A model generated the notes under the pieces. The model was not told the origin of the DNA and searched no databases. It saw nothing but the letters and a program-made list of their open reading frames with translations. From assembly GCA_035400625.1 (NCBI GenBank), contig DAOMZT010000005.1:1-32000 (forward strand): DNA of 32,000 nt. The letters run 5' to 3'. The stretch comes from an archaeon (GTDB lineage: Archaea > Iainarchaeota > Iainarchaeia > Iainarchaeales > CSSED10-239). Numbering within the stretch: the stretch's first letter is position 1; each line of letters starts with the position of its first letter. The translations under genes and the position numbers were made by a program. Positions 2,508 through 18,449 of the stretch are shown in pieces.

Positions 2508-3416
2508 TTATTTAATACAATATTTATATGCAATCAATTTATAAATCAATTTTGAAAGAAGAAAACTTTCTGCAAAAGCTGCTTTTTCTTTTGTTGGTGA
2601 AAACTCAACTATATCAACACCAAGCACTTCTTTTTCTTCAAATATTTTCTTTAAAAGATTGTTTATTTGTGTCCAGTTTAGGCCACCTGGCTCTGGGGTA
2701 TCTGTATATCTTATGATTGATGGATCAAAGATATCAACATCAATTGAAACATAGATCTTTTTTGGCAATTGTCTTAGCTTTTCCTCTAGTTGAAAGCAAT
2801 GAACTAAGTCCCAACTTTGTTGCTTTTGTGAAGATAGTAGATCTTTTGCAAATATCACTCCTACATTTTCTCCTGCTTTTGATACTAAGAAATCAATGTC
2901 GTTGTTGTCCATAGATCTTGTACCTACAAGCAAGGTCTTATGCTTCTTGGATATCTCTCTAGAAACGCAAGCATGCCACCAGGTGTCTTTTCCCCAAGGC
3001 TCTCTAAGGTCTGTGTGTGCATCAAAGACAACTATACCAAAATCCTTCTCTTTCTTTTCAATTGCCTCTATTATTGGCATTGTTGTGGAGTGGTCAGAGC
3101 CAAGGGTTATTAGGAATTTATTGCCATCGTAAATCTTGGAGTATTTGTCCAAGATTTTGTGCTTTATTTTGATAAAATCTGTATCCTTGATTGTCAGTTG
3201 CTCTTCTGTAAAGATACCAACCTCATGAGGCTCAGAAAAAAGGTCCTCCTCAAAGTATTCCAATTCTTTGCTTGCCTCTAAGATTGCCTTTGGTCCAAGG
3301 TGGCTATCGTTCTTTCTTGTGGTCTTTGTTTTAAAAGAGACTGGTAAGATAACTACCTTTGCTTTCTTTTTGTCCCTATATTCCTTTGGAAGATCCATAA
3401 AGTTCATAATCATCAC
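2508..3416 (-). CDS. speB: Agmatinase / ureohydrolase (arginase family)
   Basis: Arginase-family metal-ligand motifs are present: GSDHSTT, VVFDAHTDL, YVSIDVDIFDPS and TPEPGGL. The start overlaps the stop of the upstream gene (ATGA). Confidence 0.85.
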   Translation of the reverse strand: MMIMNFMDLPKEYRDKKKAKVVILPVSFKTKTTRKNDSHLGPKAILEASKELEYFEEDLFSEPHEVGIFTEEQLTIKDTDFIKIKHKILDKYSKIYDGNKFLITLGSDHSTTMPIIEAIEKKEKDFGIVVFDAHTDLREPWGKDTWWHACVSREISKKHKTLLVGTRSMDNNDIDFLVSKAGENVGVIFAKDLLSSQKQQSWDLVHCFQLEEKLRQLPKKIYVSIDVDIFDPSIIRYTDTPEPGGLNWTQINNLLKKIFEEKEVLGVDIVEFSPTKEKAAFAESFLLSKLIYKLIAYKYCIK

Positions 3417-4120
3417 TTACTCATTGCTTTTTTTCTTAGTTTCTCAGGCATTAATTCGATAGCATATCTTAAGGAAGTTCTTGGCATTGTTTTTTTATTC
3501 CTCATTACATAATTGAAAACTTCTTTTTGATGCTTTCTACTTGCTTCTTTTAATAACCAGCCATATCCTTTCTGGACAAGGTCTTCTTTGTCTAAAAGTA
3601 AAGTATCTGATATGTCAAAAGCAACATCAAGATATTTTCCTTTTCTTACTGGGTGAATAAAAGAAACTGCAGATGCTCTTTTCAACCAGATATTTTTAGA
3701 TTTAGACCAAGATTTCACTTCTTTTGCTAGTTGGGGGTATTTTGTTATCATGTCTCCAATTGTGTTATTACAGAAGCTATCACATTTTGCCCAGTTGTTA
3801 ATATATTTTTTAATCCATCTCTTAAATATGTAGATGTCTTTTTTTTCTAGTTTATTAATTTCTTTTGGCAGCCATTTTGCCACGATATATGCTTCTTCAC
3901 AATAGTCTGATTTTAATAGTTCTTCACAAATCTTAAATACACCTTCTTTTTTTAATTCTTTAATTTCAGGATAATATTTTTTTGCGATTTTATTAACAAT
4001 TTCTGATTTTACACCATAAACTTTTATTTCTTCTTTAAAGAACCTTTTACTACTTTCTTTAGTTTTTAGGTCTGAACTTTTTTTAAGTTCTTTTCTTATA
4101 TTTGTAATTATTTTGTTCAT
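3413..4120 (-). CDS. DNA alkylation repair protein family (AlkD-like HEAT-repeat, PF08713-like)
   Basis: The pattern ...NNWAKCDSFC...SKNIWLKRASAVSF...VQKGYGWLLKEASRKH...LRYAIELMPEKLRKK matches the DNA_alkylation family signature (W.rR.a; GW.LRE; lryA.E). Confidence 0.8.
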   Translation of the reverse strand: MNKIITNIRKELKKSSDLKTKESSKRFFKEEIKVYGVKSEIVNKIAKKYYPEIKELKKEGVFKICEELLKSDYCEEAYIVAKWLPKEINKLEKKDIYIFKRWIKKYINNWAKCDSFCNNTIGDMITKYPQLAKEVKSWSKSKNIWLKRASAVSFIHPVRKGKYLDVAFDISDTLLLDKEDLVQKGYGWLLKEASRKHQKEVFNYVMRNKKTMPRTSLRYAIELMPEKLRKKAMSK

Positions 4121-4125
4121 TTACT

Positions 4126-5169
4126 CTAGTCCTCAAAAACAACTTCTGGCCTTTCAAGATTGAAAAGATCTGTATAATAGATATATGCCCCTGCATTTAA
4201 AAACACAATCTTGTCTCCAACTTCTGGCGGATAAAGATACACTCTATATCTAAAGATATCTTCTGATGCTGGTGTCAGGCCTTTTATGACATAAGCTGTG
4301 GCTCCTTTTGTCCCTTCTTCAAGTTCTCCTTCAACCAATAGCTTAATGTTAGCAACAATTAGGTCCATTGCTGAGTTAAAGACAGAAGCATCAATAAATA
4401 TTGCATCATCAACAATATTTTTTATTGTAGTTACTAATTTACCAGAAGGTCCAGCAATTGCTCTTCCTGGTTCAATTATTAGTTTTATGTTTTTGCTATT
4501 TGCGTGTGCTTTTAGTTCTTTTATTTTTCTGTAAATGTCTTTTATTGTTTCTGCTTTGACATTCTTGTAATCTATTGGTATTCCTCCACCAATATCAAGA
4601 TAGCTTATGCTTTGCCAGGTTTCTGGAGACAATGACTCTTCCAATTCACCAACAATATTCCATTCTGAAAGGTTCTGTGTTTTTCTGTGTGTGTGTATTC
4701 CTAGTTGTTTTATGTTTTTGTTTTTCTTTAGTTTTGGTATAAGTTCATTAATGTCTCTAGAAAAGAAGCCATATACAAAATATCTACCTGTCTGCACAGT
4801 ATATTCTTTTAGTCTCATTCTTAGAAATAAAGTAATTTGTTTGTTTTCTGATTGTAGGTGTTTTTCTAAGAAATTAAGATCGTTTATGTTATCTACTATG
4901 TAGTTATCTACTCCTTTTTCAAAAAGAACATCAAGTTCTTCTTTTTCTGGAGAATGAAGCATAAACAATATTCTTTTTGTGTCTTTGATATATTGTAACT
5001 CATTAATATGATGTATTAAAAAAAAAGAATTTGTTTTTTCTTCAAGTATTTGTGTTATGTGAGGATTAGATTTTACGCTATATGCAACAATATCTGTAAG
5101 CTCTTGAAGTTTAGAAAAATTATCAATGATTGCCTTTTTAGAAAAGACAAACTTTGCCTTAGAAAACAT
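4126..5169 (-). CDS. PLP-dependent fold-III decarboxylase (Orn/Arg/DAP decarboxylase family), divergent
   Basis: Family motifs are present: AYSVKSNP (PLP-Lys motif AxKxN), LGIHTH, DIGGGIP, EPGRAIAG and NAGAY. I prefer the start at the internal ATG (MFSKAKFVFSKK...) at 5169, because the track start at 5247 would overlap the upstream gene. Confidence 0.8.
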   Translation of the reverse strand: MFSKAKFVFSKKAIIDNFSKLQELTDIVAYSVKSNPHITQILEEKTNSFFLIHHINELQYIKDTKRILFMLHSPEKEELDVLFEKGVDNYIVDNINDLNFLEKHLQSENKQITLFLRMRLKEYTVQTGRYFVYGFFSRDINELIPKLKKNKNIKQLGIHTHRKTQNLSEWNIVGELEESLSPETWQSISYLDIGGGIPIDYKNVKAETIKDIYRKIKELKAHANSKNIKLIIEPGRAIAGPSGKLVTTIKNIVDDAIFIDASVFNSAMDLIVANIKLLVEGELEEGTKGATAYVIKGLTPASEDIFRYRVYLYPPEVGDKIVFLNAGAYIYYTDLFNLERPEVVFED

Positions 5170-5222
5170 AAATAATATATGGTTAAATAAGGTTTTAAAA
5201 ATAGTAGTTTTAAAGAAAAAAA

Positions 5223-5579
5223 TTATTCTCTGCCTGGCTTTTCCCAATAACCATTATATTTCTCTAGAGGGAATCTTTTTTCATTTTTTTTTAATTTTTT
5301 AAGTAATGCTTCTTCTAAATCTATATTGTTTCTTTCAGCAAACAACAATAAAAACCATAACACATCAGAAGCTTCTTCTGCAATTTCGTCTTTTCTTTTT
5401 AAATTATTAAGTATTTTTTCACATTCTTCATTAGTTTTAAATCTAAAATGATCTAATAATTCTCCAGCTTCTGTAGAAACACCAATCACTAGATCTTTTG
5501 GGGTTTGATATTTCTTTCAATTTCTCTTGTCATTAAAATTTAATATTATTTTACCAAGTTCTTTCAGATCTTTTGCCAT
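5223..5579 (-). pseudogene. MazG-like nucleoside-triphosphate pyrophosphohydrolase (DCTPP1-like) interrupted by one in-frame TGA
   Basis: Hand translation from the ATG at 5579-5577 gives MAKDLKELGKIILNFNDKRN*KKYQTPKDLVIGVSTEAGELLDHFRFK..., continuing into the track ORF 5223..5489 in the same frame. The TGA (5519-5517) falls where the family has the invariant Trp (F..ERDW.QFH.P.NL...L..E.GEL.E.FQWK). Confidence 0.75.
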
Positions 5580-5749
5580 ATCTTTCACCGACCTTATAAA
5601 AAACAATTATAGTTTAAAACAATTTAAATATTTATTCTTTATATATGCTAGATTTTATAATTGTATTATATTTTTCGGATTTTTACTAAAAAATAAAATA
5701 ATAATCTAATTATATTTTATAGATTTTTTAATCATTTTGATAATTATTC

Positions 5750-5938
5750 CTATTCTATTTTCTTTTTTATTATATCCCAATTATCTTTATATTTTAAAAA
5801 GTCAGGGATCTTTTTTATAAAACATTTATTCCAATTATCGTTTCCACGATACTTAATTATAATATCCGTTGGAAAAACATATATTTCTCTATTTGAATAT
5901 TTTAATTTTGGATCTGTTTCAAAATCGTTTATCCTCAA
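5750..5938 (-). CDS. Hypothetical small protein (doubtful; TTG start only)
   Basis: It is an open frame of 62 codons bounded upstream by TAA, with no ATG and no recognisable motif. Confidence 0.2.
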   Translation of the reverse strand: MRINDFETDPKLKYSNREIYVFPTDIIIKYRGNDNWNKCFIKKIPDFLKYKDNWDIIKKKIE

Positions 5939-5962
5939 TTCTTAAAAGTTAAAAATGAATAA

Positions 5963-6673
5963 TTATTTAGGATTGTATCCTAAGATTTTTTTTGCCTTTG
6001 AGATATCTATGTCTTTAATGTTATCATCAACAATTGTAAATGCTTCATACCAGATTTTTCTATTTGTATTTATTGCCAAATCTATTGCTTGTAGTGCATT
6101 TTCAATCTTAAGGTGTAGTTTTAGTTCTCCAAATGGATTATAAATATCTTTTGCTCTTGTTGGCCCAAAACGAAGAATAATAACTTCGAATTTCTTTAAT
6201 ATTCCATAATTTGCAAGAATTTGTTCTGCAATTACTTTACTTGTAGAATAAGATATGTCACAATCTCTAACAATAGGGGATAATGCTTCTGTTTCTAATT
6301 TTTGGGTAAAGATTTGACTATCTTCTGATATTGGAATTTTAATAGGCATTCCTTTTTCTAAACCATAATAACTCATAGAGCTTGTAAAAATTAATTTCTT
6401 AATTCCATTTTCTAAACATGCTTGAGCCACATTAAAAGTACCAATACAATTAGTGTCAAAATAATCTTTGAATACTTTATCCTCATAAGGTTTTCTATGT
6501 GCTGCTAAATGGATTACAATATCACAACCTTTCATTGCTGATTTAAGTTGTTCATAATTTAGGATATCGCAACCTTTATTATATGCATATTCAACGATTT
6601 CGTGTTTGCCTGATAAATATTTAATTAATTCATTACCAATAAATCCAGAACTTCCCGTTATTAAAATTTTCAT
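5963..6673 (-). CDS. NAD-dependent epimerase/dehydratase family protein (compact, 236 aa)
   Basis: It has the N-terminal Rossmann motif MKILITGSSGFIGNEL, the catalytic YSTSK (YxxxK) and a C-terminal AKKILGYNPK typical of extended SDRs. Confidence 0.85.
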   Translation of the reverse strand: MKILITGSSGFIGNELIKYLSGKHEIVEYAYNKGCDILNYEQLKSAMKGCDIVIHLAAHRKPYEDKVFKDYFDTNCIGTFNVAQACLENGIKKLIFTSSMSYYGLEKGMPIKIPISEDSQIFTQKLETEALSPIVRDCDISYSTSKVIAEQILANYGILKKFEVIILRFGPTRAKDIYNPFGELKLHLKIENALQAIDLAINTNRKIWYEAFTIVDDNIKDIDISKAKKILGYNPK

Positions 6674-6780
6674 TATAAAATCACAATTAGCTTGTTATTT
6701 CTTTGATTTTTATAATCGTTTACTTCTATTGTTCTTAATGTTAGTCCCATTTATAAAAATTCCATAGTTTAATTCTAAAC

Positions 6781-7512
6781 TTATTTATACCCACCATCTG
6801 CTATTAATACAATCCCGTTTACATAACTGGAGTCTTGTGATGATAGAAAGAAAGCAACTGATGCAATTTCTTCTGGCTTACCAAATCTTTTTGTAAATAT
6901 TCTTTTTTCTTCTTCTTTTATGTATTCTTTTGGTAGTTTTTTGTTTATGTCTGTTAATACCCATCCTGGAGCAATACAGTTTACTCTGATCTTTGGTGCT
7001 AGTTCTTCTGCTAAGTTTCTAGTAAAACTAATTATCCCTGCTTTTGAAGCATCATAGTCTGCAGAGTCTGGACAAGTAACATTTATTCCGTTTGTTGATG
7101 CTATGTTAATTATGTTTCCAAAACCTTGCTTTAACATATAAGGAGCAGTATATTTAGAACAAAAATAAGCCCCATTTAAATTAACATCAAAAGTTCTTTT
7201 CCATTGTTTTGTTGTTTTCTTTAATAATGGAACATCATAAACTATTCCTGCATTATTTACTAAAACATCTATTTTTCCAAATGTTTTAATAACTTGAGTA
7301 ATCATTTTTTTAACAGCGGTTTCATTTGAAACATCACATTTAATTGCAATAGCTTCTACACCTAGTTTTTTTATATCTCGAACTACTTTATTTGCTTCTA
7401 TTTTGGAATTATTATAGTTTACTACAATATTCATTCCTTCTTTTGCAAACCTTAAAGCAATTGCTTTTCCTATTCCTCTACTTGAGCCTGTAACTAATGC
7501 AACTTTATTCAT
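6781..7512 (-). CDS. Short-chain dehydrogenase/reductase (FabG-like 3-oxoacyl reductase family)
   Basis: The classical SDR signature is present: VALVTGSSRGIGKAIA (TGxxxGxG), NNAG, and YDASKAG (YxxxK). Confidence 0.9.
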   Translation of the reverse strand: MNKVALVTGSSRGIGKAIALRFAKEGMNIVVNYNNSKIEANKVVRDIKKLGVEAIAIKCDVSNETAVKKMITQVIKTFGKIDVLVNNAGIVYDVPLLKKTTKQWKRTFDVNLNGAYFCSKYTAPYMLKQGFGNIINIASTNGINVTCPDSADYDASKAGIISFTRNLAEELAPKIRVNCIAPGWVLTDINKKLPKEYIKEEEKRIFTKRFGKPEEIASVAFFLSSQDSSYVNGIVLIADGGYK

Positions 7513-7611
7513 TTCTAATTACCTCTTTTGATATTTTTATAACCTAAAGACTTTAAATACTTTTTGATTAGATATAGATTGCTAGTTATGTTGCTAACAA
7601 ATAAAAACCAT

Positions 7612-8529
7612 TTATTTCTCAAGAACTGCGATCTTGTCAAAAGTATTTTTAATTTTCTTATTATTTTTGTATTTGCCATTACCTGAAAATTTAATGATTT
7701 TATAAGGCAAACCAAATTGCTTACAAAACCTTACTAGATTCTTATTTATTGCAAAAGGTGGTGTTTTCTTTGCAATATCGTTAGGGTAAGTGGACAAGGA
7801 ATAAACATAAAAGAATAATATTCCTTTCTTTTTAACTAGCTTTAATAAATCTACAAATACTCCTTTGTATTCTTCTGAGTCATATTCAAATCTAAAACAG
7901 AAGTAATTAGGAATATTTGATATGTTTAACACATCAAACTTTTCTTTTAGTTTTTTACTAAAATTAAAAATATCTTCACATATGAAGTTTATCTTTTTAG
8001 TTTTTAATATTTCTTTACAGCGGTTATAATTTGCTTCTGTTTTAAGATATGCATTCATTTCAAATAAAGTTACAAGAAGCATTGATCTTTCATTAAATAA
8101 ACTTGAACGAATTATCTTATTTCCATCTTTTTTAAAATAAACATAAGCACTATTAAAAAAATCAAATGTGTCTTTTTTCAAATCTTTTGAAAATCTAATA
8201 AATAATTTATAATCAAAATTACCTATTTTATTTGGGCTTCCAAAAAACTCAAGAAATTCAATATAACTCAAATGTTTTATTGCGGTTGTTTTTAAATCAA
8301 TAAAATAACCAGTAAGCTGATTAATGTCAAAACATGTAACTTTCTTTGCACCACAATAAAAAGCATTGATTGCTTGATCTCCAGAACCTGCAATTGTCAG
8401 AACTGTTTTATTCTTCAAGTTAAATTTACTATAATAATTAGAAATCTGTTCTGTTCCATAAACATACATTGGGGTAATTTTGCCTTTCCCTACTCCTCTA
8501 ATTTCAGTAATTATTTTTTTAATATCCAT
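7612..8529 (-). CDS. DUF3419 / BtaA-like class I SAM-binding fold protein
   Basis: VLTIAGSGDQAINAFYCGAKKVTCFDINQLTGYFIDLKTTAIKHLSYIEFLEFFG resembles the DUF3419 (BtaA N-terminal-like) pattern ItSaG.nal...v.avD.N..Q..l..LK......l.y..f...fG. The assignment is from memory of the family pattern. Confidence 0.6.
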   Translation of the reverse strand: MDIKKIITEIRGVGKGKITPMYVYGTEQISNYYSKFNLKNKTVLTIAGSGDQAINAFYCGAKKVTCFDINQLTGYFIDLKTTAIKHLSYIEFLEFFGSPNKIGNFDYKLFIRFSKDLKKDTFDFFNSAYVYFKKDGNKIIRSSLFNERSMLLVTLFEMNAYLKTEANYNRCKEILKTKKINFICEDIFNFSKKLKEKFDVLNISNIPNYFCFRFEYDSEEYKGVFVDLLKLVKKKGILFFYVYSLSTYPNDIAKKTPPFAINKNLVRFCKQFGLPYKIIKFSGNGKYKNNKKIKNTFDKIAVLEK

Positions 8530-8638
8530 ATCAAATGTTTATTCTAAAGTATTTAAATAATTAACATTTCGCACTGGACACCTACCCTCCCGAAAACAAC
8601 CCTTGTTTCTACAACAATATATTTATGGTGTAAGGGTT

Positions 8639-9553
8639 ATGGAAAATAAAACTGACGATAAGCTTTTGGTTGTTGAAAACCTAAAGAAAAAAATATACAC
8701 AATTAGAAATCAACAAGTAATGCTGGATAGTGACCTTGCAAAGCTTTATGGTATAACTGTTAGTGCACTTAACCAAGCAGTTAAAAGAAATTTAGAAAGA
8801 TTCCCAAATGATTTTATGTTTCAACTTACCAAATCTGAACAAAATGATCTTATCGTTTACGATAACCTAAAATATCAAAAAATCTTGAAATCACAAATTG
8901 TGATTTCAAGTTCTGGATGGGGAGGCAAAAGAACAACCCCCTTTGTCTTCACAGAACAAGGTGTTGCTATGCTTTCTGGTGTCCTAAAAAGTGAAAGGGC
9001 TGTACAGGTTAATATCTATGTTATGAGAGCCTTTGTGGCTATGCGAAGATTTATGCAAGAAAACGCAGGGCTTATTGTAAGAGTAGATTCTCTTGAGAAA
9101 AAACAAATTGAAAATAACAAGAAATTTAAGGTGATATTTTCAGCTATGGATAACAAAGTAATATTAAAAAAACAAAAACTATTCTTTGATGGTCAAATCT
9201 TTGATGCTTATAAGTTTGTTAATGATATTCTGAAAGGTGCTAAAAAATCTATAATTATTATAGATAACTACATAGACGAATCTGTGTTTGTTTTATTTTC
9301 AGAACTTAATATAAACATCACAATTTATACAGAAAAGATTACAGAAAAACTAAAACTAGATCTTGAAAAATACAATCAACAATACCCTAAGATAGAAATT
9401 AAGATTCTGAAAAAATGCCACGACAGGTTCTTAATTATTGATAATACAGAAATCTATCATCTTGGAGCCTCCATTAAAGATCTTGGAAAGAAAATGGTTG
9501 CAATCTCTAAAATGAATAAAGAATCTTTGCAAATACTAAATAAATTGAAATAA
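8639..9553 (+). CDS. ORF6N (KilA-N-related) domain DNA-binding protein with conserved C-terminal HDRFLIID...YHLGASIKDLGKK region
   Basis: IYTIRNQQVMLDSDLAKLYGITVSALNQAVKRNLERFPNDFMFQLTKSE...LKSQIVISSSGWGGKRTTPFVFTEQGVAMLSGVLKSERAVQVNIYVMRAFV is the typical ORF6N domain. I prefer the ATG at 8639 over the TTG at 8603 in the track. Confidence 0.85.
   Translation: MENKTDDKLLVVENLKKKIYTIRNQQVMLDSDLAKLYGITVSALNQAVKRNLERFPNDFMFQLTKSEQNDLIVYDNLKYQKILKSQIVISSSGWGGKRTTPFVFTEQGVAMLSGVLKSERAVQVNIYVMRAFVAMRRFMQENAGLIVRVDSLEKKQIENNKKFKVIFSAMDNKVILKKQKLFFDGQIFDAYKFVNDILKGAKKSIIIIDNYIDESVFVLFSELNINITIYTEKITEKLKLDLEKYNQQYPKIEIKILKKCHDRFLIIDNTEIYHLGASIKDLGKKMVAISKMNKESLQILNKLK
8884..8910. repeat. 27-nt perfect hairpin palindrome (12-bp arms, 3-nt loop), copy P0, inside the ORF6N CDS
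   Basis: The sequence is cttgaaatcaca-aat-tgtgatttcaag, and the arms are exact reverse complements. It encodes L-K-S-Q-I-V-I-S-S. Confidence 0.85.
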
Positions 9554-9610
9554 TTAAAAACTTGTGTTACTTGGTAAATTTGCTGGAAACACCAGTATTT
9601 ATGCTAATCG

Positions 9611-9637
9611 TTTGAGGTCGCAATTTGCGACCTCAAA
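9611..9637. repeat. 27-nt perfect hairpin palindrome, copy P1, intergenic
   Basis: The sequence is tttgaggtcgca-att-tgcgacctcaaa, with the same architecture as P0 and P2. It is GC-rich relative to its surroundings. Confidence 0.85.
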
Positions 9638-9655
9638 ACAAGAAAAAGGAGATAA

Positions 9656-9682
9656 TTTGCGGTCACAAATTGTGACCGCAAA
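9656..9682. repeat. 27-nt perfect hairpin palindrome, copy P2, intergenic
   Basis: The sequence is tttgcggtcaca-aat-tgtgaccgcaaa, starting 18 nt after the end of P1. Confidence 0.85.
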
Positions 9683-9792
9683 AATCAGCAGTATCTTTGA
9701 CACAAATAAAAAGCAGAAGCTTTTTAACATTTTTATTACCTAAATATATATTTCTAGTTTTATTCTTTTAAAATATTAAAAAGACAAGAAAT

Positions 9793-12630
9793 ATGAGACA
9801 TAAAAGCATTATTATTAAAGGTGCCAGAGAGCACAATCTAAAGAACATTGATGTAGAGATACCTAGAGATAAGCTCGTGGTTATCACAGGAGTTTCAGGT
9901 TCTGGAAAATCAACACTTGCTTTTGACACTATCTATGCTGATGGCCAAAGAAGATATATGGAATCTTTATCTGCTTATGCTAGGCAGTTTCTTGGGATGA
10001 TGAAAAAACCAGATGTTGATTCTATAGAAGGGCTGTCCCCAGCAATCTCTATAGAACAAAGAACAAGTTCTAAGAACCCTCGCTCAACTGTAGGGACAAT
10101 TACTGAGATTTATGATTATTTAAGATTACTTTATGCAAGAATAGGAACACCTTATTGTCCTAAACATAACATACCTATACAGCCATTATCTGCTCAAAAG
10201 ATAACAGAAAATATCCTAGATGAATACAAAGAAGAAATTTACATACTTTCGCCAATAGTCCAGAAAAAGAAAGGGACCTATGAGAAGCTTTTCTTAGACC
10301 TTAACAAAGAAGGTTTTTTAAGAGTAAGAATAAACGGAGAGATCGCAAGAACAGACGAGGAAATAAAGATCGACAGATATAAAATGCATGATATTGATAT
10401 TGTTATTGACAGAATAACACCAAGCGATGATAAAACAAGGCTCTACCAGGATATTGAGCAAGGCCTTGACAGATCAAATGGACTAATCAAAATAATTTCA
10501 GTAAAAGACTTTGAAAAAAACAAAGAAAAAGCAAAAGAAAAGCTTTTCTCTTCTAAGATGTCTTGTCCAGTGTGTGGCCTTTCTTTTGAAGAGCTACAGC
10601 CTAGAATGTTTTCTTTTAATTCTCCGTTTGGTGCTTGTGAGGAGTGTTCTGGCCTAGGCTTTAAGATGGAGTTTGATCCAGATCTAATAATTCCAGACAA
10701 AACAAAATCAATAGCTGATGGAGCAGTAGTGATTTACAGAAACATTGTAGATAGTTGGCGCGGACAGCATCTTGCAATAGTTGCCAAACATCATAATTTC
10801 TCAGCAATGACTCCTATAAAAGACCTAACAAAGAAACAATATGATGTCTTGATGTATGGTTCAGAAGATAATATCCAATTTAATCTTGAAGGAAAAAACG
10901 GAACATCAAGCTTTAATTACAATGGCAAATGGGAAGGGATTATTCCTCAGTCTCAAAGATTGTACAGACAAACAGATTCTGACTACAGAAAAACAGAAAT
11001 GGAAAAATATATGAGCACTTCTCCTTGTCTTGCTTGTAAGGGTAGAAGACTAAAAGAAAAAATTCTAGCAGTAAAGATCAATAACAAATCAATAATGGAT
11101 ATTTGTGATTTGTCAATAGCCTCAGCTACTTATTTTTTCAAAAATATTAAACTAGATAACAAACAAAAAGAAATATCCAACCACATACTAAAAGAAATAA
11201 ACTCTCGTCTTGAGTTTTTAGAAAAGGTTGGTCTTGGCTATCTTACTCTTTCAAGAGCATCGGGAACTCTTTCAGGAGGAGAGTCTCAAAGGATTCGTTT
11301 GGCAACAAACCTAGGAACAAACCTAACAGGGGTTTTGTATATTCTTGATGAGCCATCTATTGGTCTTCACCAGAAAGATAACCAAAAGCTTATTGATACT
11401 CTTTGTAATCTAAGGGATCTTGGTAACACTGTTGTGGTTGTTGAACATGATGAAGACACCATTCGCCAGGCAGACTATGTTGTTGATATGGGTCCGGGGG
11501 CAGGCATCTATGGTGGAGAAGTTGTTGCTGTAGGAACTCCTGAAGATATAGAAAATTCCAAAAAATCATTAACTGGACAATATCTTGCAGGAACCCAGTT
11601 TATTCAAATCCCAAAGATAAGAAGAAAACCTAAGGATTTTATAAAAATAATTGGAGCAGAGGAAAATAATCTTAAGAAAATAGATTTAAAGATACCAACA
11701 GGGGTCTTTACTTGTATTACTGGAGTATCAGGCTCTGGTAAGTCTTCTCTTGTTTATGAGACAATCTATCCTTTCCTCATGAACAGGTTTTATAAATCAA
11801 GGATGAGTGTTGGTAAAGTTAAAGACGTAATAATCCCTAAAAATATTGATAAAGTAATTTCCATTGACCAATCACCAATAGGAAGAACCCCTCGTTCCAA
11901 TCCTGCAACATACACCAAGTTGTTTGATGATATTAGATGGGTGTTTGCCATGTCACCTGAGGCAAAGCTAAGAGGATATGATATTGGAAGATTTTCTTTT
12001 AATGTCAAAGGCGGAAGATGTGAGGCTTGTCAAGGTGATGGGCAGATTAAGATTGAAATGAATTTTCTTCCTGATATTTATGTTGACTGTGATGAATGTA
12101 AAGGCAAAAGATATAATTCTGAGACTCTTGAAATATTATACAAAAAGAAAAACATTGCAGATGTCTTAAACATGTCAGTTGATGAGGCTTTTACTTTTTT
12201 TGAAAACTTGCCATCTCTAAGGAAAAAGCTACAAACTCTTGTTGATGTTGGTCTTGGCTACATTAAGCTTGGTCAAAGTTCTGTAACTCTTTCAGGAGGA
12301 GAAGCTCAAAGAATCAAGTTGACAAAAGAGTTATCAAAGAGAGACACAGGAAACACAGTTTACCTTCTTGACGAGCCAACAACAGGCCTACATTTTCATG
12401 ATGTTAAGAAATTGATAGATGTTCTTAACCGTTTGGTGGAGAAAGGAAACACTGTTATCGTTATAGAACATAACCTTGATATCATAAAGTCAGCAGACTA
12501 TATTATTGACCTTGGTCCTGATGGTGGAGAGAAAGGAGGAGAAGTTGTTGCAGAAGGCACTCCTGAGGAAATCACAAAATCCAAAAAAAGCTATACTGCT
12601 GAATTTCTTAAAAAGATACTTAAAAAATAA
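9793..12630 (+). CDS. uvrA: Excinuclease ABC subunit A
   Basis: It is 945 aa with two ABC ATPase modules ([23 protein letters not shown], two LSGGE signatures) and zinc modules (CPVCG...CEECSGLG; CEACQGDG...CDECKGKRY). Confidence 0.98.
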
Positions 12631-12660
12631 TCTTATTTCTTTTTCTTTGTTTTATATTTT
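12631..12660 (+). terminator. T-rich tract downstream of uvrA (possible oligo-T terminator)
   Basis: tcttatttctttttctttgttttatatttt lies directly after the TAA stop. Oligo-T tracts act as terminators in archaea. This call is weak given the AT-rich background. Confidence 0.3.
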
Positions 12661-12718
12661 ATCTGTCCCAAAACAAGAAAAAGTTTATTTTTTAATATGT
12701 CTTTAACATATATTATTT

Positions 12719-14293
12719 ATGATTAATCTAGAAAATATCCCTTCTAGTCCTGGTTGTTATATCTATAAGGATAATCTAGATAATATAATCTATATTGGCA
12801 AAGCAAAAAACCTAAAGAAAAGAGTTTCTTCTTATTTTTTGAAGAAAGATCATGATAACAAAACAAATGCTCTTGTGTCTAATATCTCTTCTGTGGATTT
12901 CATTGTTACTTCTAATGAGCTTGAGGCTCTTGTCCTAGAGAATAATCTAATTAAGAAATATCTTCCAAAATATAATGTTGATCTAAAGTCTGGTCAAAGA
13001 TATGCTTATATCCAATTGACAAAAGATATATTCCCTAGACTTGTAACCATAAGAGAAAAGCCAAAAGGCAAAGATGACAACATATTTGGACCATTTGTTT
13101 CTGGTCAGAACAGAATTGAAACAATCAGGTTTCTTAACAAGCATTTCAAGCTTAGAACATGTAAGAGACTTCCAAAGACTGCTTGTGTAAGATATCATAT
13201 TGGTTATTGCTCTGCTCCTTGCATTGCCAACATCTCTAAGGAAGAATATGCTAAGACAATTGAAATTGTAAAAAAAATACTTTCTGGAAAAAGCACAGAA
13301 TATCTTCCAGATATGAAAAAAGAAATGGATAATTATTCTAAGAACCAAGACTTTGAGAAGGCCCTTGTCTTAAGAGACCAGATTTCTGCTATCGAGTATC
13401 TGGCAGAAAAGCAGAATATGGAAAGATTAGTTAATTATAATCAGGATATTATTAATTATGAGATAAGAGACAACAAAGTCTATGTCCTTCTCTTTAACAT
13501 AGACAAAGGGCTTCTTGTTAACAAAAGATCTTTTTCTTTTGATGAAACCTTGGTAGACATCTCTGTTCTTGATGATTTTCTTGTAAAATATTATTCCAAT
13601 AACCAGAAAACAATACCACAAGAGATTATTCTTCCAGAAGAGATCTCACAAAGCACCAAAGATTATCTTGAAGGCCTTTCTAAAAAGAAAATAACTATAA
13701 CAATTCCAAAAAAAGGAGAGAAAAAAGAACTTCTTGATCTTTGCTTTAAAAATATTGAGATTACTTTTTTTAGAAATATCAGTAAGGTTTATGCTTTAAA
13801 GGAAAAGCTAAAACTAAAAAAGGTTCCACACATGATCGAGTGCTTTGATATTTCTCATCTTTCTGGCACCCTCACTGTTGGCTCAATGGTTTGCTTTAAA
13901 GATGGTGTCCCTTTTAAGGAACAATATAGAAGATTCAGAATCAAGACCTTACCAAAAGACAAAATTGATGATTTTTCAGCAATGGCAGAAGTAGTCAGAA
14001 GAAGATATCTAAACAAAGAGCTTCCTTTGCCTGACTTGATTGTCATAGATGGGGGGAAAGGTCAGCTTTCTTCTGCTATAGATGCTTTAAAGGTGGCTGG
14101 TGTCCAAGATAAAGTGCAGATTATCGCCCTTGCTGAAAAAGAAGAAGAGATTTACTTGCCAGACCTGATGTTTCCAATAAAACTGAACAGAAAAGACATA
14201 GCTCTTCTTTTGCTGGAAGAGATAAGAGATGAAGCCCACAGGTTTGCTATAACCTACAACAAGCTTTTAAGAGAAAAAGAAATTAAAAAATAA
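12719..14293 (+). CDS. uvrC: Excinuclease ABC subunit C, short form (no C-terminal HhH2 region)
   Basis: It has a GIY-YIG domain (GCYIYKD...IIYIGKAKNLKKRVSSYF), a UVR domain (FEKALVLRDQISAIEYL) and an Endo-V-like domain (ECFDISH...IRDEAHRFAITYN). The protein ends about 20 aa after the RDEAHRFA motif. Confidence 0.95.
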   Translation: MINLENIPSSPGCYIYKDNLDNIIYIGKAKNLKKRVSSYFLKKDHDNKTNALVSNISSVDFIVTSNELEALVLENNLIKKYLPKYNVDLKSGQRYAYIQLTKDIFPRLVTIREKPKGKDDNIFGPFVSGQNRIETIRFLNKHFKLRTCKRLPKTACVRYHIGYCSAPCIANISKEEYAKTIEIVKKILSGKSTEYLPDMKKEMDNYSKNQDFEKALVLRDQISAIEYLAEKQNMERLVNYNQDIINYEIRDNKVYVLLFNIDKGLLVNKRSFSFDETLVDISVLDDFLVKYYSNNQKTIPQEIILPEEISQSTKDYLEGLSKKKITITIPKKGEKKELLDLCFKNIEITFFRNISKVYALKEKLKLKKVPHMIECFDISHLSGTLTVGSMVCFKDGVPFKEQYRRFRIKTLPKDKIDDFSAMAEVVRRRYLNKELPLPDLIVIDGGKGQLSSAIDALKVAGVQDKVQIIALAEKEEEIYLPDLMFPIKLNRKDIALLLLEEIRDEAHRFAITYNKLLREKEIKK

Positions 14294-14294
14294 A

Positions 14295-14969
14295 CTAATT
14301 ATTTTCTTCTTTTAAGATTTCATATATTTCCTTGTTTAAGATTACATTATTTACTTTTCCTATCTTCTCTTTTTTTATAATTTCATTATCTTCTAGATCT
14401 CTTAATATCCTATGGACTTTTAGTTTATTTAGCTTCGTTATTTGAACTAGTTCATATTGTCTTATTTTTCCATTATTTTCAAGAAGTGCCTGTATTAATT
14501 TTCTGTGTGTATCAGGGAGCATCTTTAAAATTAGCCCAGTATTGTTTGCCAAATGTTTTTCCGTTTTATCTACTTTACTTGACATAGCCCAGAAAACAAT
14601 AATACCAAATAACAAACCAATAAATGCAGCAAAAGGAATAAGATATTTATGATATTCAAAAACAAATGGTTTTTTCATGCGCTTAAATTCTGCATCAAGT
14701 TGTTCTTTTGTTTTGTGGGGTTGTATTTGACAACTACTATTGTCTTCATTATTATCACACAAAGCTATATATTTTTGAGTGGTGTGGCGTGTTATGGCAT
14801 TGTCATCAAATATTCTTTCTCTTCTTAATTTGTCTTGTGCTGACAAAAAGAAATAAACTGAAAATATTAATAGCAAAAATGCCACAAGAATTACAATACC
14901 CAAAACTACATTTTTCTTTATTTTCATAGATATTTCTGCATCTAAATATTTAAAAAACAATTGTTTCAT
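14295..14969 (-). CDS. Membrane-anchored winged-helix transcriptional regulator (2 TM segments, ~70-aa external loop with 2 Cys, C-terminal wHTH)
   Basis: The hydrophobic segments are VVLGIVILVAFLLLIFSVYFFL and YLIPFAAFIGLLFGIIVFWAM. The C-terminus HRKLIQALLENNGKIRQYELVQITKLNKLKVHRILRDLEDNEIIKKEKIGKVNNV is MarR/ArsR-like wHTH. An alternative start lies at 14927 (MKIKKNVV). Confidence 0.75.
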   Translation of the reverse strand: MKQLFFKYLDAEISMKIKKNVVLGIVILVAFLLLIFSVYFFLSAQDKLRRERIFDDNAITRHTTQKYIALCDNNEDNSSCQIQPHKTKEQLDAEFKRMKKPFVFEYHKYLIPFAAFIGLLFGIIVFWAMSSKVDKTEKHLANNTGLILKMLPDTHRKLIQALLENNGKIRQYELVQITKLNKLKVHRILRDLEDNEIIKKEKIGKVNNVILNKEIYEILKEENN

Positions 14970-15051
14970 ATTTTTGAAACTTTATTTTTTATAGTTTTAT
15001 TATTTTGAAACCCTGTTTTTTAGTTTCAAAAAAGCATATATATAGTTTCAA
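14955..15051. promoter_or_regulatory. Cluster of GTTTCA/TGAAAC half-sites (candidate operator array) in the divergent regulator/ABC promoter region
   Basis: GTTTCA occurs at 14963-14968, 15023-15028 and 15045-15050, and TGAAAC at 14975-14980 and 15006-15011. These form GTTTCA-N6-TGAAAC and TTTTGAAAC-N11-GTTTCAAAA inverted repeats. In addition, the 12-bp palindrome AAACAATTGTTT lies at 14955-14966. Confidence 0.5.
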
Positions 15052-15070
15052 TTCTATAATTTATATAAAC

Positions 15071-15763
15071 ATGAAAACAAAAAAAATAATAGAAATACAA
15101 AATGTAACAAAAACCTATAATATGGGTGACATTAAGCTTAATGCTTTAGAAAATATAAGCTTAACTGTATCTCGTGGAGAATTTCTAATTATAATTGGAC
15201 CTAGTGGTTCAGGCAAAAGCACACTTATGAACATTGTTGGTTGTCTTGACCTTCCTAGCTATGGGAAAGTATATCTAGATAATAAAGACATAACAAAAAT
15301 GAGTGAAAGCAATCTTGCAAAGCTCAGAGGAAAAACCATAGGATTTATCTTTCAACAATTTAATCTTATGCCCACTTTAACTGCATTAGAAAATGTGGTT
15401 TTGCCTCTTGAATTTCAAAACGTAAATCCAACAAAAGCAAGAAAAGAAGCATTAGATAAGTTAAAAATCGTAGATTTAGAAGATAGAATAAATCATTTAC
15501 CAAAAGAACTGTCTGGAGGACAACAACAAAGAGTAGCAATTGCAAGAGCACTTTGTGGAAATCCAGAAATTATTCTTGCAGATGAACCGACAGGAAACCT
15601 TGATTCAAAAACAGGAATATTCATTATGGATTTTCTTAAAGAATTACATGAAAAGGGCAAAACAATAATTGTAGTTACTCATGATTTAAATATTTCTAAA
15701 TATGGGGACAGAATAATACATTTAATAGATGGAAAAATAAATAAAATTGAAGAAAAAAGGTGA
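15071..15763 (+). CDS. ABC transporter ATP-binding protein, MacB/LolD/FtsE-like
   Basis: It has Walker A GPSGSGKST, the signature LSGGQQQRVAIARAL and Walker B ILADEPTGNLD. I prefer the ATG at 15071. The stop codon is TGA. Confidence 0.95.
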   Translation: MKTKKIIEIQNVTKTYNMGDIKLNALENISLTVSRGEFLIIIGPSGSGKSTLMNIVGCLDLPSYGKVYLDNKDITKMSESNLAKLRGKTIGFIFQQFNLMPTLTALENVVLPLEFQNVNPTKARKEALDKLKIVDLEDRINHLPKELSGGQQQRVAIARALCGNPEIILADEPTGNLDSKTGIFIMDFLKELHEKGKTIIVVTHDLNISKYGDRIIHLIDGKINKIEEKR

Positions 15764-15769
15764 AAAATA

Positions 15770-17089
15770 ATGTCAAAAAGAATAATATTAGCATTGCTTT
15801 GTGTGTTAATACTGCCAAGTATTTTCGCAACAGATACAGAAGGGATTAACTTAAGTGCAACATTAATTAACCAAATTCCTGATCCTGTTAGAGCCGGAGA
15901 AATAGTAGAGTTTAGATTTAGCATTCAAAATTATGGAAGTGCCAGCGTAAATGATGCAATCATCTCTCTTGAAACCGGCTATCCTTTTGAAGAAATGCCA
16001 GGAGAAAACTATAATATAACAATAAATAAGATTTCTGCATATCAAAATTCAGAATATGCAATAACAACAAAATACAAGTTATTAGTTAACAAAGATGCAC
16101 CAAATGGAGAATATGAAATTAAATTAAAAATAAATACTAACAACAACATTACAAACATCTATACTTTTGATGTTTTTGTGACAGGAAAAGAATATGCACA
16201 AATAATTACAATCAATAAATCAAATATTGATTTTGGGAAAGTTGAACAGCTTGATTTCTTAATAAGTAATACAGGCAATTCACAACTTAAAAATTTAGTT
16301 TTTTCATGGACAGATCCCACTGAAACTTTACTTCCTGTTAATTCTGATAATACAAAATATATTAAATATTTAGATGTGGGTGCATCAACAACAGTTAGTT
16401 ACAAAGTTATGGCTAATAGTAATGCAGATCCAGGACTTTATAAAATTGATCTTTCTTTAGAATTTGAAAACGAAGATTACAACGATACCAAAATAAATAC
16501 AATTGCAGGAATTTTTGTAGGAGGACAAACAAACTTTGATATTACTTTTTCAGAAAGCAATAGTGGAAATATATCTCTTTCTATTGCTAATGTTGGAAAC
16601 AATCCCGCATATGCAATTAATGTTATTATTCCTGAACAAGAAAATTACAAAGTAAGTGGAACCAACTCTTCAATTTTAGGCAATCTTGATAAAGGAGATT
16701 ACACAATTGCTTCTTTTAATATAAGTCCAAAAAGAAGCTTTGATACAAACTCAATGCCTACAAACCAAATACCAAGAAGAACAGATAAAAACGATAATTT
16801 ACCATATGCAAATCCTACACATCAAAACAATCTAGAAGTTACAATAGAATACACGGACTCTATGGGACAAAGAAACTCAATAACAAAAAAAGTAAATATT
16901 AGTTCAAATACAAATGTAGCTCCTAGCGAAATAACAAACAACACAAATTCCGGATATGTCGCACAATTTAATAGAAGAAGCCCAAGAACTAATTGGTATG
17001 TCTATATCATTATTGGATTAGTTTCTTTAGTTGCATTATTTTATGCACATAAATTTTATACAAAAAATAGCAAAAAGAAAAAACAATGA
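15770..17089 (+). CDS. Exported CARDB/COG1361-type S-layer-domain repeat protein with C-terminal TM anchor
   Basis: It has an N-terminal signal (ILALLCVLILPSIFA), repeated beta-rich modules (NQIPDPVRAGEIVEFRFSIQNYG..., ISNTGNSQLKNLVFSW..., LSIANVGNNPAYAINV...) and a C-terminal TM segment followed by KKKKQ. This architecture is commonly adjacent to MacB-type ABC systems in archaea. Confidence 0.7.
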   Translation: MSKRIILALLCVLILPSIFATDTEGINLSATLINQIPDPVRAGEIVEFRFSIQNYGSASVNDAIISLETGYPFEEMPGENYNITINKISAYQNSEYAITTKYKLLVNKDAPNGEYEIKLKINTNNNITNIYTFDVFVTGKEYAQIITINKSNIDFGKVEQLDFLISNTGNSQLKNLVFSWTDPTETLLPVNSDNTKYIKYLDVGASTTVSYKVMANSNADPGLYKIDLSLEFENEDYNDTKINTIAGIFVGGQTNFDITFSESNSGNISLSIANVGNNPAYAINVIIPEQENYKVSGTNSSILGNLDKGDYTIASFNISPKRSFDTNSMPTNQIPRRTDKNDNLPYANPTHQNNLEVTIEYTDSMGQRNSITKKVNISSNTNVAPSEITNNTNSGYVAQFNRRSPRTNWYVYIIIGLVSLVALFYAHKFYTKNSKKKKQ

Positions 17090-18336
17090 GATTTAAAAAG
17101 ATCATAGAACTTGCTGTAAACTATGTAATTCATAGTAAATTAAGAAGCTGGTTAACCATCTTAGGTATAGTTATAGGAGTTTCTTCTTTTGTTGCTATAT
17201 TGGCACTTGGAGAAGGAATGAACCAAGATATTGAAAATCGAATGGCTTCTTTACAAGTTGATCAAATAAACATAACTACCGGCTTTTCTAGGGCAATGGG
17301 GGCAATGCCTGGTTTTGAAGGTGGAGGTCCTCGTGGCTCTGGCGGAATAAGAAATCCAGAAAGTACATCAAAAGACACAAATCTCACAAAAAAAGACATT
17401 GCATCAATCAAAGGATTACCTGAAATTGATGTAATAAGCACAGAAGTTTCAGGAAGAGAAACCATTTATTATAATGGAGAGAAAATTGAGAGGGGCATAT
17501 TGGGAGTAGATGTGATTAATTGGTTACAAATTACAAACCTAGAACTAACAAGTGGAAGACTTCTTGGACCTTCAGATAAATACTCTGTATTAATTGGAAA
17601 CAGAATAGCAACAGAAAGTTTCTCTAAAGAAATACCATTAAATTCTTTAATAACAATAAATAACAAATCCTTTAGGGTTGTTGGGATTATAAAAAACAGT
17701 CAGGAAATAATAATACCACAAGATATTGCCTACATTGTGTTGCCAGATACTACACCTAATAAATATGATAGAATTATTGTTAAGGCTTCGAGTGTTGATG
17801 ATGTAAATTATCTAACTACAGAAATAACAAACAGATTAATGATGTCAAGACATGTTACAGCAAGAACAAAAGATTTCTCTGTATCTGCAGTAAAAGACAA
17901 TATTGAAAGAATGAGTGAGATGAGTAATTCTATGATACTATTCCTTGCTATAATTGCAGCAATTTCTTTAATTGTTGGAGCTATTGGCATTGCCAACACA
18001 ATGTTTACCTCTGTTCTTGAGAAAACAAAAGAAATTGGAATTATGAAATCAATTGGGGCAACCAACAATGATATACTTTTAATCTTTATTTGCACTTCTG
18101 CTTTCTATGGGATAGTAGGTGGAATTTTGGGCGTACTTCTTGGAGGAGCAATATCTGGCACTCTTGGTTCATATATTGGTATAACTATGGTAAGGGGAGG
18201 AGGCAATAGTGCATTATCCTTTACTCTTGCTCTAAAGGGTGTACTTCTTGCAACAGGGATTAGCATTATCTCTGGATTCTTTCCAGCATATCGTGCTTCA
18301 AAGCTAAAACCAGTAGATGCTCTAAGATACGAATGA
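17086..18336 (+). CDS. ABC transporter permease, MacB/FtsX-like
   Basis: It has an N-terminal TM segment, a large periplasmic-type domain and a C-terminal FtsX 4-TM region ending AYRASKLKPVDALRYE. The start overlaps the upstream stop (ATGA). Confidence 0.9.
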   Translation: MRFKKIIELAVNYVIHSKLRSWLTILGIVIGVSSFVAILALGEGMNQDIENRMASLQVDQINITTGFSRAMGAMPGFEGGGPRGSGGIRNPESTSKDTNLTKKDIASIKGLPEIDVISTEVSGRETIYYNGEKIERGILGVDVINWLQITNLELTSGRLLGPSDKYSVLIGNRIATESFSKEIPLNSLITINNKSFRVVGIIKNSQEIIIPQDIAYIVLPDTTPNKYDRIIVKASSVDDVNYLTTEITNRLMMSRHVTARTKDFSVSAVKDNIERMSEMSNSMILFLAIIAAISLIVGAIGIANTMFTSVLEKTKEIGIMKSIGATNNDILLIFICTSAFYGIVGGILGVLLGGAISGTLGSYIGITMVRGGGNSALSFTLALKGVLLATGISIISGFFPAYRASKLKPVDALRYE

Positions 18337-18449
18337 TTTTTTTTCAGAAAAATTTATGTCTTTAGGTTTTATAGTGTGCCTAAAAAAATAAATATTCTTT
18401 ATTTTAATATATATTAAAATACATTTCTAAACCTAAATATATATTTAAC

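Follow-up and report, generated by a model that had tools for sequence, protein, structure and literature searches.

Why should one short palindrome be perfect at each of three sites around a single gene while its sequence differs from site to site? The question is raised by a 32,000-nt stretch of archaeal DNA (hereafter the window; positions 1 to 32,000 of contig DAOMZT010000005.1, assembly GCA_035400625.1, from a member of the Iainarchaeales), in which a gene of family PDC-S05, encoding a protein with an ORF6N domain, holds one 27-nt palindrome (P0) and is followed by two more (P1 and P2). Here we show that the palindrome is real and family-wide, that it is a hairpin-shaped element kept at the nucleotide level and constrained in sequence, and that it is local to PDC-S05 genes and a site of rearrangement. 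The explanation that we favour, with a probability of about 0.4, is a DNA hairpin or cruciform element whose arms are homogenised by template switching, whose sequence is selected as well, and which is most plausibly bound by the TrmB-like product of the gene itself.

Three perfect palindromes in and behind one gene

8639..9553, plus strand: gene for a protein of 304 amino acids with an ORF6N N-domain, a coiled coil and a PLD-fold C-domain, candidate defence family PDC-S05 (from Pfam, PADLOC and an AlphaFold2 model)
8884..8910, no strand: P0, cTTGAAATCACAA-A-TTGTGATTTCAAg, the copy of the 27-nt palindrome within the gene, encoding LKSQIVISS; homologues are palindromic at the equivalent site
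9611..9637, no strand: P1, TTTGAGGTCGCAA-T-TTGCGACCTCAAA, the first of the two units in the relic array, equal to the internal unit of the related loci L001 and L002 except at the centre
9656..9682, no strand: P2, TTTGCGGTCACAA-A-TTGTGACCGCAAA, the second of the two units in the relic array

All three sites are perfect 13+1+13 palindromes, each with 13-nt arms of 100% complementarity on either side of a single central base. Matches to the pattern TTGNNNTCNCAWWTTGNGANNNCAA are found at only three sites in the window (six strand-matches), where 0.05 would be expected and none of 100 shuffles reaches three, and all three sites adjoin or lie in the ORF6N gene. Folded as single-stranded DNA, P0, P1 and P2 reach -11.2, -13.6 and -14.8 kcal/mol (z = -6.3, -7.3 and -8.5). 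P0 begins 246 nt into the open reading frame (ORF) and is in frame, in the codons directly 5' of WGGKR...FTEQGVAM, and P1 and P2 lie 58-129 nt past the stop codon. The copies differ mutually at positions -4 and -7 to -9, each remaining perfectly self-complementary, and direct reading of the sequence finds every difference between copies mirrored in the opposite arm. The first-pass annotation of this DNA, which had described three perfect hairpin palindromes at 8884, 9611 and 9656 with compensatory arm changes, and LKSQIVISS as the translation of P0 before the WGG...FTEQGVAM block, was thus right on each of these points. Eight contigs from other samples carry an array identical to that of the window, with 0-2 differences in 3.3 kb, all outside the array, so an assembly artefact is excluded.

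A scan for intrinsic terminators, that is, G+C-rich hairpins with a T-run directly behind them on the transcribed strand, found none at P1 and P2, which have TTT in front and AAAA behind on either strand. As a T-run is absent, a role of these two units as rho-independent terminators is ruled out. Of the three palindromes, only P0 on the minus strand (8874-8910), where it is followed by ATTTTTTGAT, scores as terminator-like, which would concern antisense transcripts.

The palindrome is kept across the gene family

Relatives of the gene were compared at 80 loci from many bacterial phyla and from archaea, over the region between the RFPxxFxFxL and FTEQG motifs, with synonymous-codon shuffles that respect each gene's own codon usage as the null. 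In about half of these loci a perfect odd palindrome with arms of 10-16 nt lies at exactly the P0 site. The mean longest arm is 8.2 in ORF6N-type genes against 3.4 in their shuffles (p<=0.01 in 35 of 65), and the mean best arm is 11.8 in RhuM-type genes against 3.9 (p<=0.01 in 47 of 64), nominal probabilities that are too optimistic because related sequences are counted as independent. The synonymous-codon shuffling that the first-pass annotation had proposed therefore gives a positive answer for both types of N-domain. The RhuM-type genes carry AACTGTCGCAAA-W-TTTGCGACAGTT, which encodes TVA[K/N]FATV, and have the same PLD-fold C-domain fused to their N-domain.

The reading frame is less constant than the DNA. 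At ORF6N loci 81 units have the centre of the palindrome on codon position 1, 15 have it on position 2 and three on position 3; a further 20 units are outside long ORFs, and one subfamily reads the core GGTCGCAAATTGCGACC one base out of phase, as ELVANCDRF. Palindromy throughout the family and the use of three codon phases bear out the earlier proposal that an element at the nucleic-acid level constrains the peptide motif. Changes in the arms couple residues in the encoded peptide, namely S..V/A (TCR..GYG), F..G (TTC..GGA), Y..G and C..G, so that this amino-acid covariation is produced by the DNA. The alternation between SQ-IV and SQ-FA had likewise been ascribed to the palindrome, correctly, the I/F alternation being its A/T centre. 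The peptide L[KR]SQ[IF][VA][TI]S is thus largely a by-product of the palindrome. The protein segment involved is a poorly ordered, insertion-tolerant linker of the N-domain: residues 76-97, which include the peptide encoded by P0, have pLDDT<50 in the AlphaFold2 model, which indicates poor order, and the genes hold 1-5 units, always in frame, with 2-5 internal units in many relatives. A search for units of mixed phase within one array returned none among 24 pairs at strict thresholds; the sole example, at locus L217, was found by eye.

Among the loci examined, in-frame units are confined to N-domains of the ORF6N and RhuM types. About 90 units were found in 83 loci, of which ~62 are at the gene site, ~25 within 30-400 nt of the gene and almost none elsewhere. 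Nearby extra copies are present in only ~18% of loci, and upstream copies in only ~10 loci other than the window. Our search of the literature returned no description of the palindrome, and the papers found that mention ORF6N do not mention it.

Some RhuM sub-types (L050 at ~4025, L225 at 522, L265, and L264 at 1264) have perfect palindromes with wholly different inner arms and the outer AACT...AGTT retained; in one example, AACTATTCGGAA-A-TTCCGAATAGTT encodes TIRKFRIV, with five compensated pair changes relative to the TVAKFATV type. PDC-S05 genes also occur as tandem arrays of paralogues (L069, 2884-4903; also L222, L238, L289 and L217), in which N-domains of the RhuM and the ORF6N type are joined to PLD-fold C-domains that are nearly identical. 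In such arrays truncated relics of the N-domain stand directly upstream of the next gene's start, and in L238 and L289 the next ATG comes directly after a relic that ends in '...KQGV'.

A hairpin with a 3-nt loop and a constrained sequence

The consensus unit is 27 nt long, TTTRAGGTCRCAA-W-TTGYGACCTYAAA; positions 2-13 make up the stem, and the loop consists of three A/T bases. Over 119 units the paired fraction is 0.71-1.0 at positions 2-13 and falls to 0.28 at position 14, which defines the limits of the element. The loops observed are AAT, ATT and AAA. In the 'SQN' variants (CA-AAA-TG) the dyad is broken at +-1, yet 9.5 of 11 stem pairs are kept; the conserved thing is therefore a hairpin with a 3-nt A/T loop, and not merely a symmetric duplex.

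Such a hairpin might act in RNA, within the mRNA or its untranslated regions, on stability, processing or translation, or as a protein-bound structure. The triloop hairpin is stable, free copies in phages resemble intrinsic terminators, and extra copies occur at would-be 5' and 3' untranslated regions, as in L027 and L044, where one precedes the start codon by ~25 nt and lies immediately 5' of the ribosome-binding site. However, sense-strand mismatches in near-perfect stems are A:C in 36 cases and G:T in 25, so there is no tolerance of G:U, which argues against a structure in the sense RNA. Moreover, the centre flips, unit rearrangements and breakpoints at the palindrome described below are events of DNA, P1 and P2 lack a T-run, and a search of Rfam gave no family at its gathering score (best, SSRC34_2, 31 bits against 48). 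An RNA role, which the first-pass annotation had listed among the possible functions, is accordingly disfavoured and seems to us very doubtful. The matches of Rfam below threshold, SSRC34_2, Spd-sr07 and SSRC38, all small RNAs of Streptococcus, fall at 8845-8971 and 9611-9739 and are driven by the hairpin; kinship with them was rejected, as the SSRC34_2 consensus encodes no ORF6N-like peptide and the likeness is confined to the hairpin.

The sequence of the unit is constrained beyond its pairing. The centre base is A in 70 units, T in 60, C in two and G in none. The centre occupies a third codon position in RhuM-type genes, and the codons that contain it are AAA (40) and AAT (32), with no AAG or AAC, although AAG makes up 22% of the K codons and AAC 36% of the N codons of those genes. 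Of the stem pairs at third codon positions in these genes, +-3, +-6 and +-9 hardly vary, whereas all four bases are found at fourfold sites of conserved codons nearby; the pair at +-12, also at third positions, shows clean covariation (A:T 42, G:C 28). Divergence is 2.6-4.8% in the stem arms and 18-26% in the flanks. A centre restricted to A and T, frozen pairs and slowly evolving arms are not producible by correction of one arm from the other alone. Sequence comparison thus shows the nucleotide sequence itself to be constrained; the constraint, to which the sharp end at position 13 also belongs, we ascribe to purifying selection on a DNA element that is in use.

These data bear on the view that the palindrome has no function, and that an ancestral quasi-palindrome has simply been kept perfect by template-switch correction, with units, relics and phage copies as by-products. 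Changes of both arms, flips of the centre, gain and loss of units and hybrid units are what template switching would be expected to give (PMC8794818, PMC8604942), and relic copies are about as perfect as in-gene copies by a direct count from the table. It also accords with this view that half of the homologues do without the palindrome and that the encoded segment is poorly ordered and tolerant. However, correction cannot purge G and C from an unpaired centre, and none of 72 sites has the synonymous AAG or AAC. Nor would correction slow evolution down, and yet third-position pairs that are free to covary stay fixed and the flanks evolve 5-10 times faster than the arms. Furthermore, the stem has an abrupt limit at position 13, and viral contigs contain the core 30 to 90 times as often as matched control palindromes. 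We therefore regard a palindrome that merely perpetuates itself as unlikely.

P1 and P2 as units of a truncated second array

9559..9610, plus strand: 5' part of the relic array, with a decayed '...EFEIL...' codon match and the well-kept leader GGAAACACCAGTATTTATGCTAATCG, aligned to L001, L002, L087 and L083
9638..9655, plus strand: spacer between P1 and P2, homologous to the in-frame internal-array spacer KQEKG.DN, with a 3-nt indel polymorphism in L297 and L001
9564..9743, plus strand: 59-codon open frame through the relic array, with a GTG start and LRSQFATSK...LRSQIVTAK, probably not a gene

The two units behind the stop codon had been taken as free-standing copies, which they are not. The whole downstream module of leader, P1, spacer and P2 aligns to the internal arrays of L001, L002, L087 and L083, non-palindromic parts included; among these parts is a leader of ~30 nt that precedes the first unit in the relatives' internal arrays and is shared with the relic. 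The similarity weakens ~55 nt upstream of P1, and it stops immediately behind P2. Because leader and spacer align as well, P1 and P2 are, on this sequence evidence, two units of a truncated second ORF6N array, the relic of a paralogue behind the stop codon. Taken together, the relic units and P0 of the window correspond to the three-unit internal array of L087, and comparable relics that begin or end at the palindrome are found at L011, L022, L222, L238 and L289. The first-pass annotation had named, as a finding that would count against its reading, that the region might be the debris of a decayed ORF6N paralogue. The truncated array agrees with this in part, but simple debris it is not, as the array is kept at ~90-95% similarity to internal arrays while its flanks are decayed or unrelated. 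A small hairpin, CTGG-aaaca-CCAG (9583-9595), lies in the conserved leader that precedes the first array unit of this clade.

The 59-codon frame with a GTG at 9564 and the peptides LRSQFATSK and LRSQIVTAK is present as described, and it might be asked whether P1 and P2 lie within a genuine gene for a small protein at 9564-9743. The frame is open and its GTG kept in four strains, with indels of 36, 3 and 48 nt, all multiples of 3. However, indels in frame follow from the coding origin of the units, searches of Pfam and NCBIfam returned no family match for the frame, and relatives with a 90-nt intergenic region lack it altogether. A small gene is scarcely probable at all.

Rearrangement at the palindrome among strains

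8740..8950 (approximate bounds), plus strand: mosaic, conversion-like tract around P0, delimited by sliding identity; like L087 and unlike L001 and L002

Outside the array region, the window shares ~97% identity with its orthologue L001 and ~93% with L002. There is one internal unit in the window, two in L001 and one in L002. Past the stop codon the window has two units and L001 three, and L002 has one together with a hybrid made of the left part of P1 and the right part of P2. The centre of P2 is A in the window and T in L001. L297 encodes an identical protein and differs from the window by a flip of the P1 centre (T->A), a 3-nt indel in the spacer and one change in an arm of P2 (G->A), that is, by three events in the 72-nt array against seven substitutions in ~2,800 nt elsewhere, a count from one pair of strains. 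Covarying arms are thus seen within loci and between loci, and centre flips in L001 and L297. We also looked for centre flipping in an E. coli population, where no RhuM-type match was present at the DNA level.

Around P0 the window is itself a mosaic. Identity to L001 is 0.97-0.98 at 8639-8739 and, from 8964 on, mostly 0.96-1.00 (lowest 0.88), but over the intervening tract of ~200 nt it drops to 0.62-0.75, and lower inside the array; identity to L087 is 0.90 at 8759-8819. By its pattern of identity the tract looks like a conversion tract centred on the array.

It is conceivable, then, that the locus is a device for diversification, in which breaks at the hairpin are repaired from paralogous or relic arrays, P1 and P2 serving as a silent cassette, and the linker of a defence sensor is rewritten in the manner of antigenic variation. 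The mosaic tract with its L087-like donor would fit, as would a relic array that stays ~90-95% like internal arrays while its flanks decay, relic indels that are all multiples of 3 in a frame open in four strains, and relic units that together with P0 reproduce the L087 array. Tandem paralogues and N-domain relics are also common, and the family is a defence candidate. Nevertheless, only ~18% of loci have nearby extra copies, no switching is seen among near-clonal strains, there is no dedicated recombinase among 13 ORFs scanned at 3.4-20.4 kb, and the linker may have no part in specificity. Diversification as the purpose of the element is therefore distinctly unlikely. We are similarly sceptical of a combined version, in which hairpin-provoked breaks repaired from relic arrays would rewrite the PDC-S05 sensor linker while the same DNA is the binding site of the protein, so that regulation and variability would move with the gene on horizontal transfer.

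Copies of the core in viral contigs

The core of the unit is also found apart from the gene family. The 19-mer AGGTCRCAAWTTGYGACCT occurs in 91 viral contigs (IMG/VR loci L090-L346), against 0, 3, 1 and 2 for four composition-matched control palindromes, an enrichment of 30- to 90-fold. A scan with a 17-mer mixed true units with terminator-like hairpins among the matches listed and became interpretable with the 19-mer and the four controls. About 70 of the viral sites are intergenic, with one copy per phage locus. T- or A-run flanks of a terminator-like kind are present at about half of the 91 sites, several of which lie between convergent genes, so that the free phage copies, unlike P1 and P2, often qualify as intrinsic terminators. 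Many resemble bidirectional or simple terminators, and six adjoin gp32 genes. As only 20 of the 91 loci have an ORF6N-like ORF and the neighbours are diverse, we rejected a reading of these copies as a regulon. They may be relics that were exapted as terminators, copies of a mobile unit, or a ligand of the N-domain; in the last case, a hairpin enriched in the intergenic DNA of phages could be what this domain senses.

The palindrome might also be a site of recombination, as the first-pass annotation had suggested among other functions, or of mobility, either a core site or a mobile palindrome similar to repetitive extragenic palindromes (REPs) or miniature inverted-repeat transposable elements, with the PLD-fold domain or a recombinase of the host as the enzyme. 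PLD-fold enzymes act through covalent intermediates, and a 27-bp site with symmetric arms and a central AAWTT has the dimensions of a recombinase core site. Fragments do begin or end at the palindrome, and the core recurs in unrelated phage intergenic regions. However, the catalytic HxK of PLD enzymes, read from the sequence, is HxR in the protein of the window, and no transposase or recombinase gene is found among 13 ORFs scanned at 3.4-20.4 kb. Dispersed copies are missing too, with three in 32 kb, all at the gene, almost no unlinked copies in ~640 kb of flanks around the 80 loci, and a single copy per phage locus. A recombination or mobility site is thus very improbable.

The host protein and a possible use of the element

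The DNA of the window comes from a DPANN-type archaeal metagenome-assembled genome, and the 304-residue product has the same sequence (100% identity) as P0001, named 'MAG TPA: ORF6N domain-containing protein [archaeon]'. Residues 17-115 match the Pfam family ORF6N (PF10543; E 1.1e-31, 109.4 bits against a cut-off of 27.8), and residues 2-303, in effect the whole protein, match the PADLOC profile PDC-S05 (E 7e-112). By family membership it is a candidate anti-phage defence protein; a PDC-S05 member with a RhuM domain was reported to protect E. coli from T7, T5 and T4 (bioRxiv 10.1101/2024.09.26.614923). The AlphaFold2 model has a confident N-domain, a long helix and a PLD-fold C-domain, and a structure search with the C-domain matched PLD3, F13 and TDP1. 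A sequence search of the PDB with the protein gave no useful match, and the best Foldseek match of the whole chain was TrmBL2, an archaeal DNA-binding protein (E 3.3e-6).

An operator was among the functions that the first-pass annotation had listed. The core of the unit, TCRC-N5-GYGA, has the form of the TrmBL1/Tgr operator, which is TATCAC-N5-GTGATA (PMC4158304). Cores of this form are AATCAC-AAATT-GTGATT in P0, GGTCAC-AAATT-GTGACC in P2 and TATCAC-AAATT-GTGATA in the L001/L002 unit GATATCACAAATTGTGATATC, which is literally the operator. The only partner constantly linked to the element is the product of its own gene, and this linkage, with the TrmB-like architecture and the operator-form core, makes that product the most plausible binder.

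We accordingly propose the following course, which we infer from the patterns above. The palindrome would extrude as a hairpin or cruciform during replication, and its arms would then copy-correct each other by template switching, a process documented to homogenise the arms of inverted repeats and to invert the spacer (PMC8794818, PMC8604942). This would give perfect arms, simultaneous changes in both arms and A<->T flips of the centre. The hairpin site would also be a hot spot for gain and loss of units, for deletion between units and for short conversion tracts. The element would act in cis; its most plausible role would be to bind the product of its own gene, with an autoregulation that travels with the gene, and binding would probably be to the extruded form or aided by it.

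Several observations weigh against this proposal. P0, P1 and P2 differ and are still self-complementary, which a simple dimer operator does not explain; as no single protein can require three symmetric sequences that differ, recognition of half-sites alone does not account for the symmetry, and intrastrand pairing or homogenisation of the arms must. In most genes the internal copy is the only one, and at ~250 nt from the start of the ORF it would be oddly placed for an operator; the placement relative to promoter, TATA box and transcription start expected of a TrmB-type operator is not seen in the window. The match to TrmBL2 is architectural only (rmsd ~21 A over the whole chain), and the core at ~70 phage intergenic sites, with no ORF6N gene nearby, is something that autoregulation fails to explain. 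The long palindrome is lost in about half of the homologues, so any function is dispensable, and the array is unchanged in eight near-clonal strains, so its dynamics are not fast. Finally, hhalign detected no homology between the RhuM-type and ORF6N-type N-domains (probability 0.2%). We therefore rejected homology between them, and the 'equivalent position' of the palindrome in the two types is an impression from the order of motifs; the DNA element is then the more constant feature.

The surroundings of the gene (3416-20384) are rich in DNA repair functions: an alkylation repair enzyme, the ORF6N gene, uvrA directly downstream and then uvrC, with uvrB 9 kb further on. The adjacency of ORF6N gene and uvrA is retained in DPANN relatives down to 59% protein identity, and the upstream neighbour is variable. 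Within the gene, at 8958-8971, a Shine-Dalgarno-like AAGGTG followed by an ATG lies in the conserved FTEQGVAM codons, which hints at an internal start or a preferred point of fusion.

Comparison with known systems

The closest parallels are the quasi-palindromes that form template-switch hairpins (PMC8794818, PMC8604942, PMC7202029), with homogenised arms, changes of both arms in one step, an inverted spacer or centre and a local hot spot of complex mutation. Here, in contrast, one palindrome is kept across a gene family of Bacteria, Archaea and phages, within coding sequence and in three phases, and there is additional selection on its sequence. The TrmB operators (TGM; PMC4158304) share TCRC-N5-GYGA, and TrmBL2 has the same succession of DNA-binding N-domain, long helix and PLD-fold C-domain. 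TrmB-family and other winged helix-turn-helix regulators autoregulate (PMC4158304), which for PDC-S05 is proposed only. In our case an ORF6N or RhuM N-domain takes the place of the TrmB domain, the palindrome is found within the ORF and not at the promoter, and symmetry is perfect over 27 nt, including the positions that differ between sites of one locus.

REPs, with their bacterial interspersed mosaic elements (BIMEs) and the REPINs linked to REP-associated tyrosine transposases (RAYTs), are likewise short hairpin palindromes, single or in small clusters and often just behind genes. They are extragenic, however, with tens to hundreds of dispersed copies and a RAYT, whereas the units described here lie in or beside one gene family, and no RAYT (Y1 transposase) is among 13 ORFs scanned at 3.4-20.4 kb. 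The palindromic elements of Rickettsia are reportedly in-frame insertions of ~100-150 bp in many unrelated genes of a single genus. The likeness is that genes accept palindromic DNA in frame, where it encodes surface or linker regions of the proteins; the units here differ in being 27 nt long, limited to N-domains of the ORF6N and RhuM types, and kept across phyla. In the pilE/pilS system a G-quadruplex initiates gene conversion from silent cassettes. It resembles our locus in having a non-B DNA structure at a variable coding segment and promoterless partial copies nearby, but the structure here would be a hairpin or cruciform, no programmed switching was found, and most loci have no cassette. 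Two further possibilities were ruled out: a CRISPR array, by the 18-nt spacer (against ~30 nt or more), the presence of only two units and the lack of a cas-like ORF nearby; and a diversity-generating retroelement, as no reverse transcriptase is among the scanned ORFs and the differences are not A-specific.

Implications for the PDC-S05 family

In this family a DNA element is more conserved than the reading frame that runs through it, and the motifs L[KR]SQ[IF][VA]TS and TVA[KN]FATV are partly dictated by nucleic-acid pairing and not by protein function. Small ORFs and candidate small RNAs called beside PDC-S05 genes may be relic arrays. Codon-optimised PDC-S05 constructs delete a conserved cis element. 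Since synonymous recoding breaks the pairing without changing the protein, the palindrome offers a testable system for the effect of hairpin DNA on how single-gene anti-phage defences are regulated or varied.

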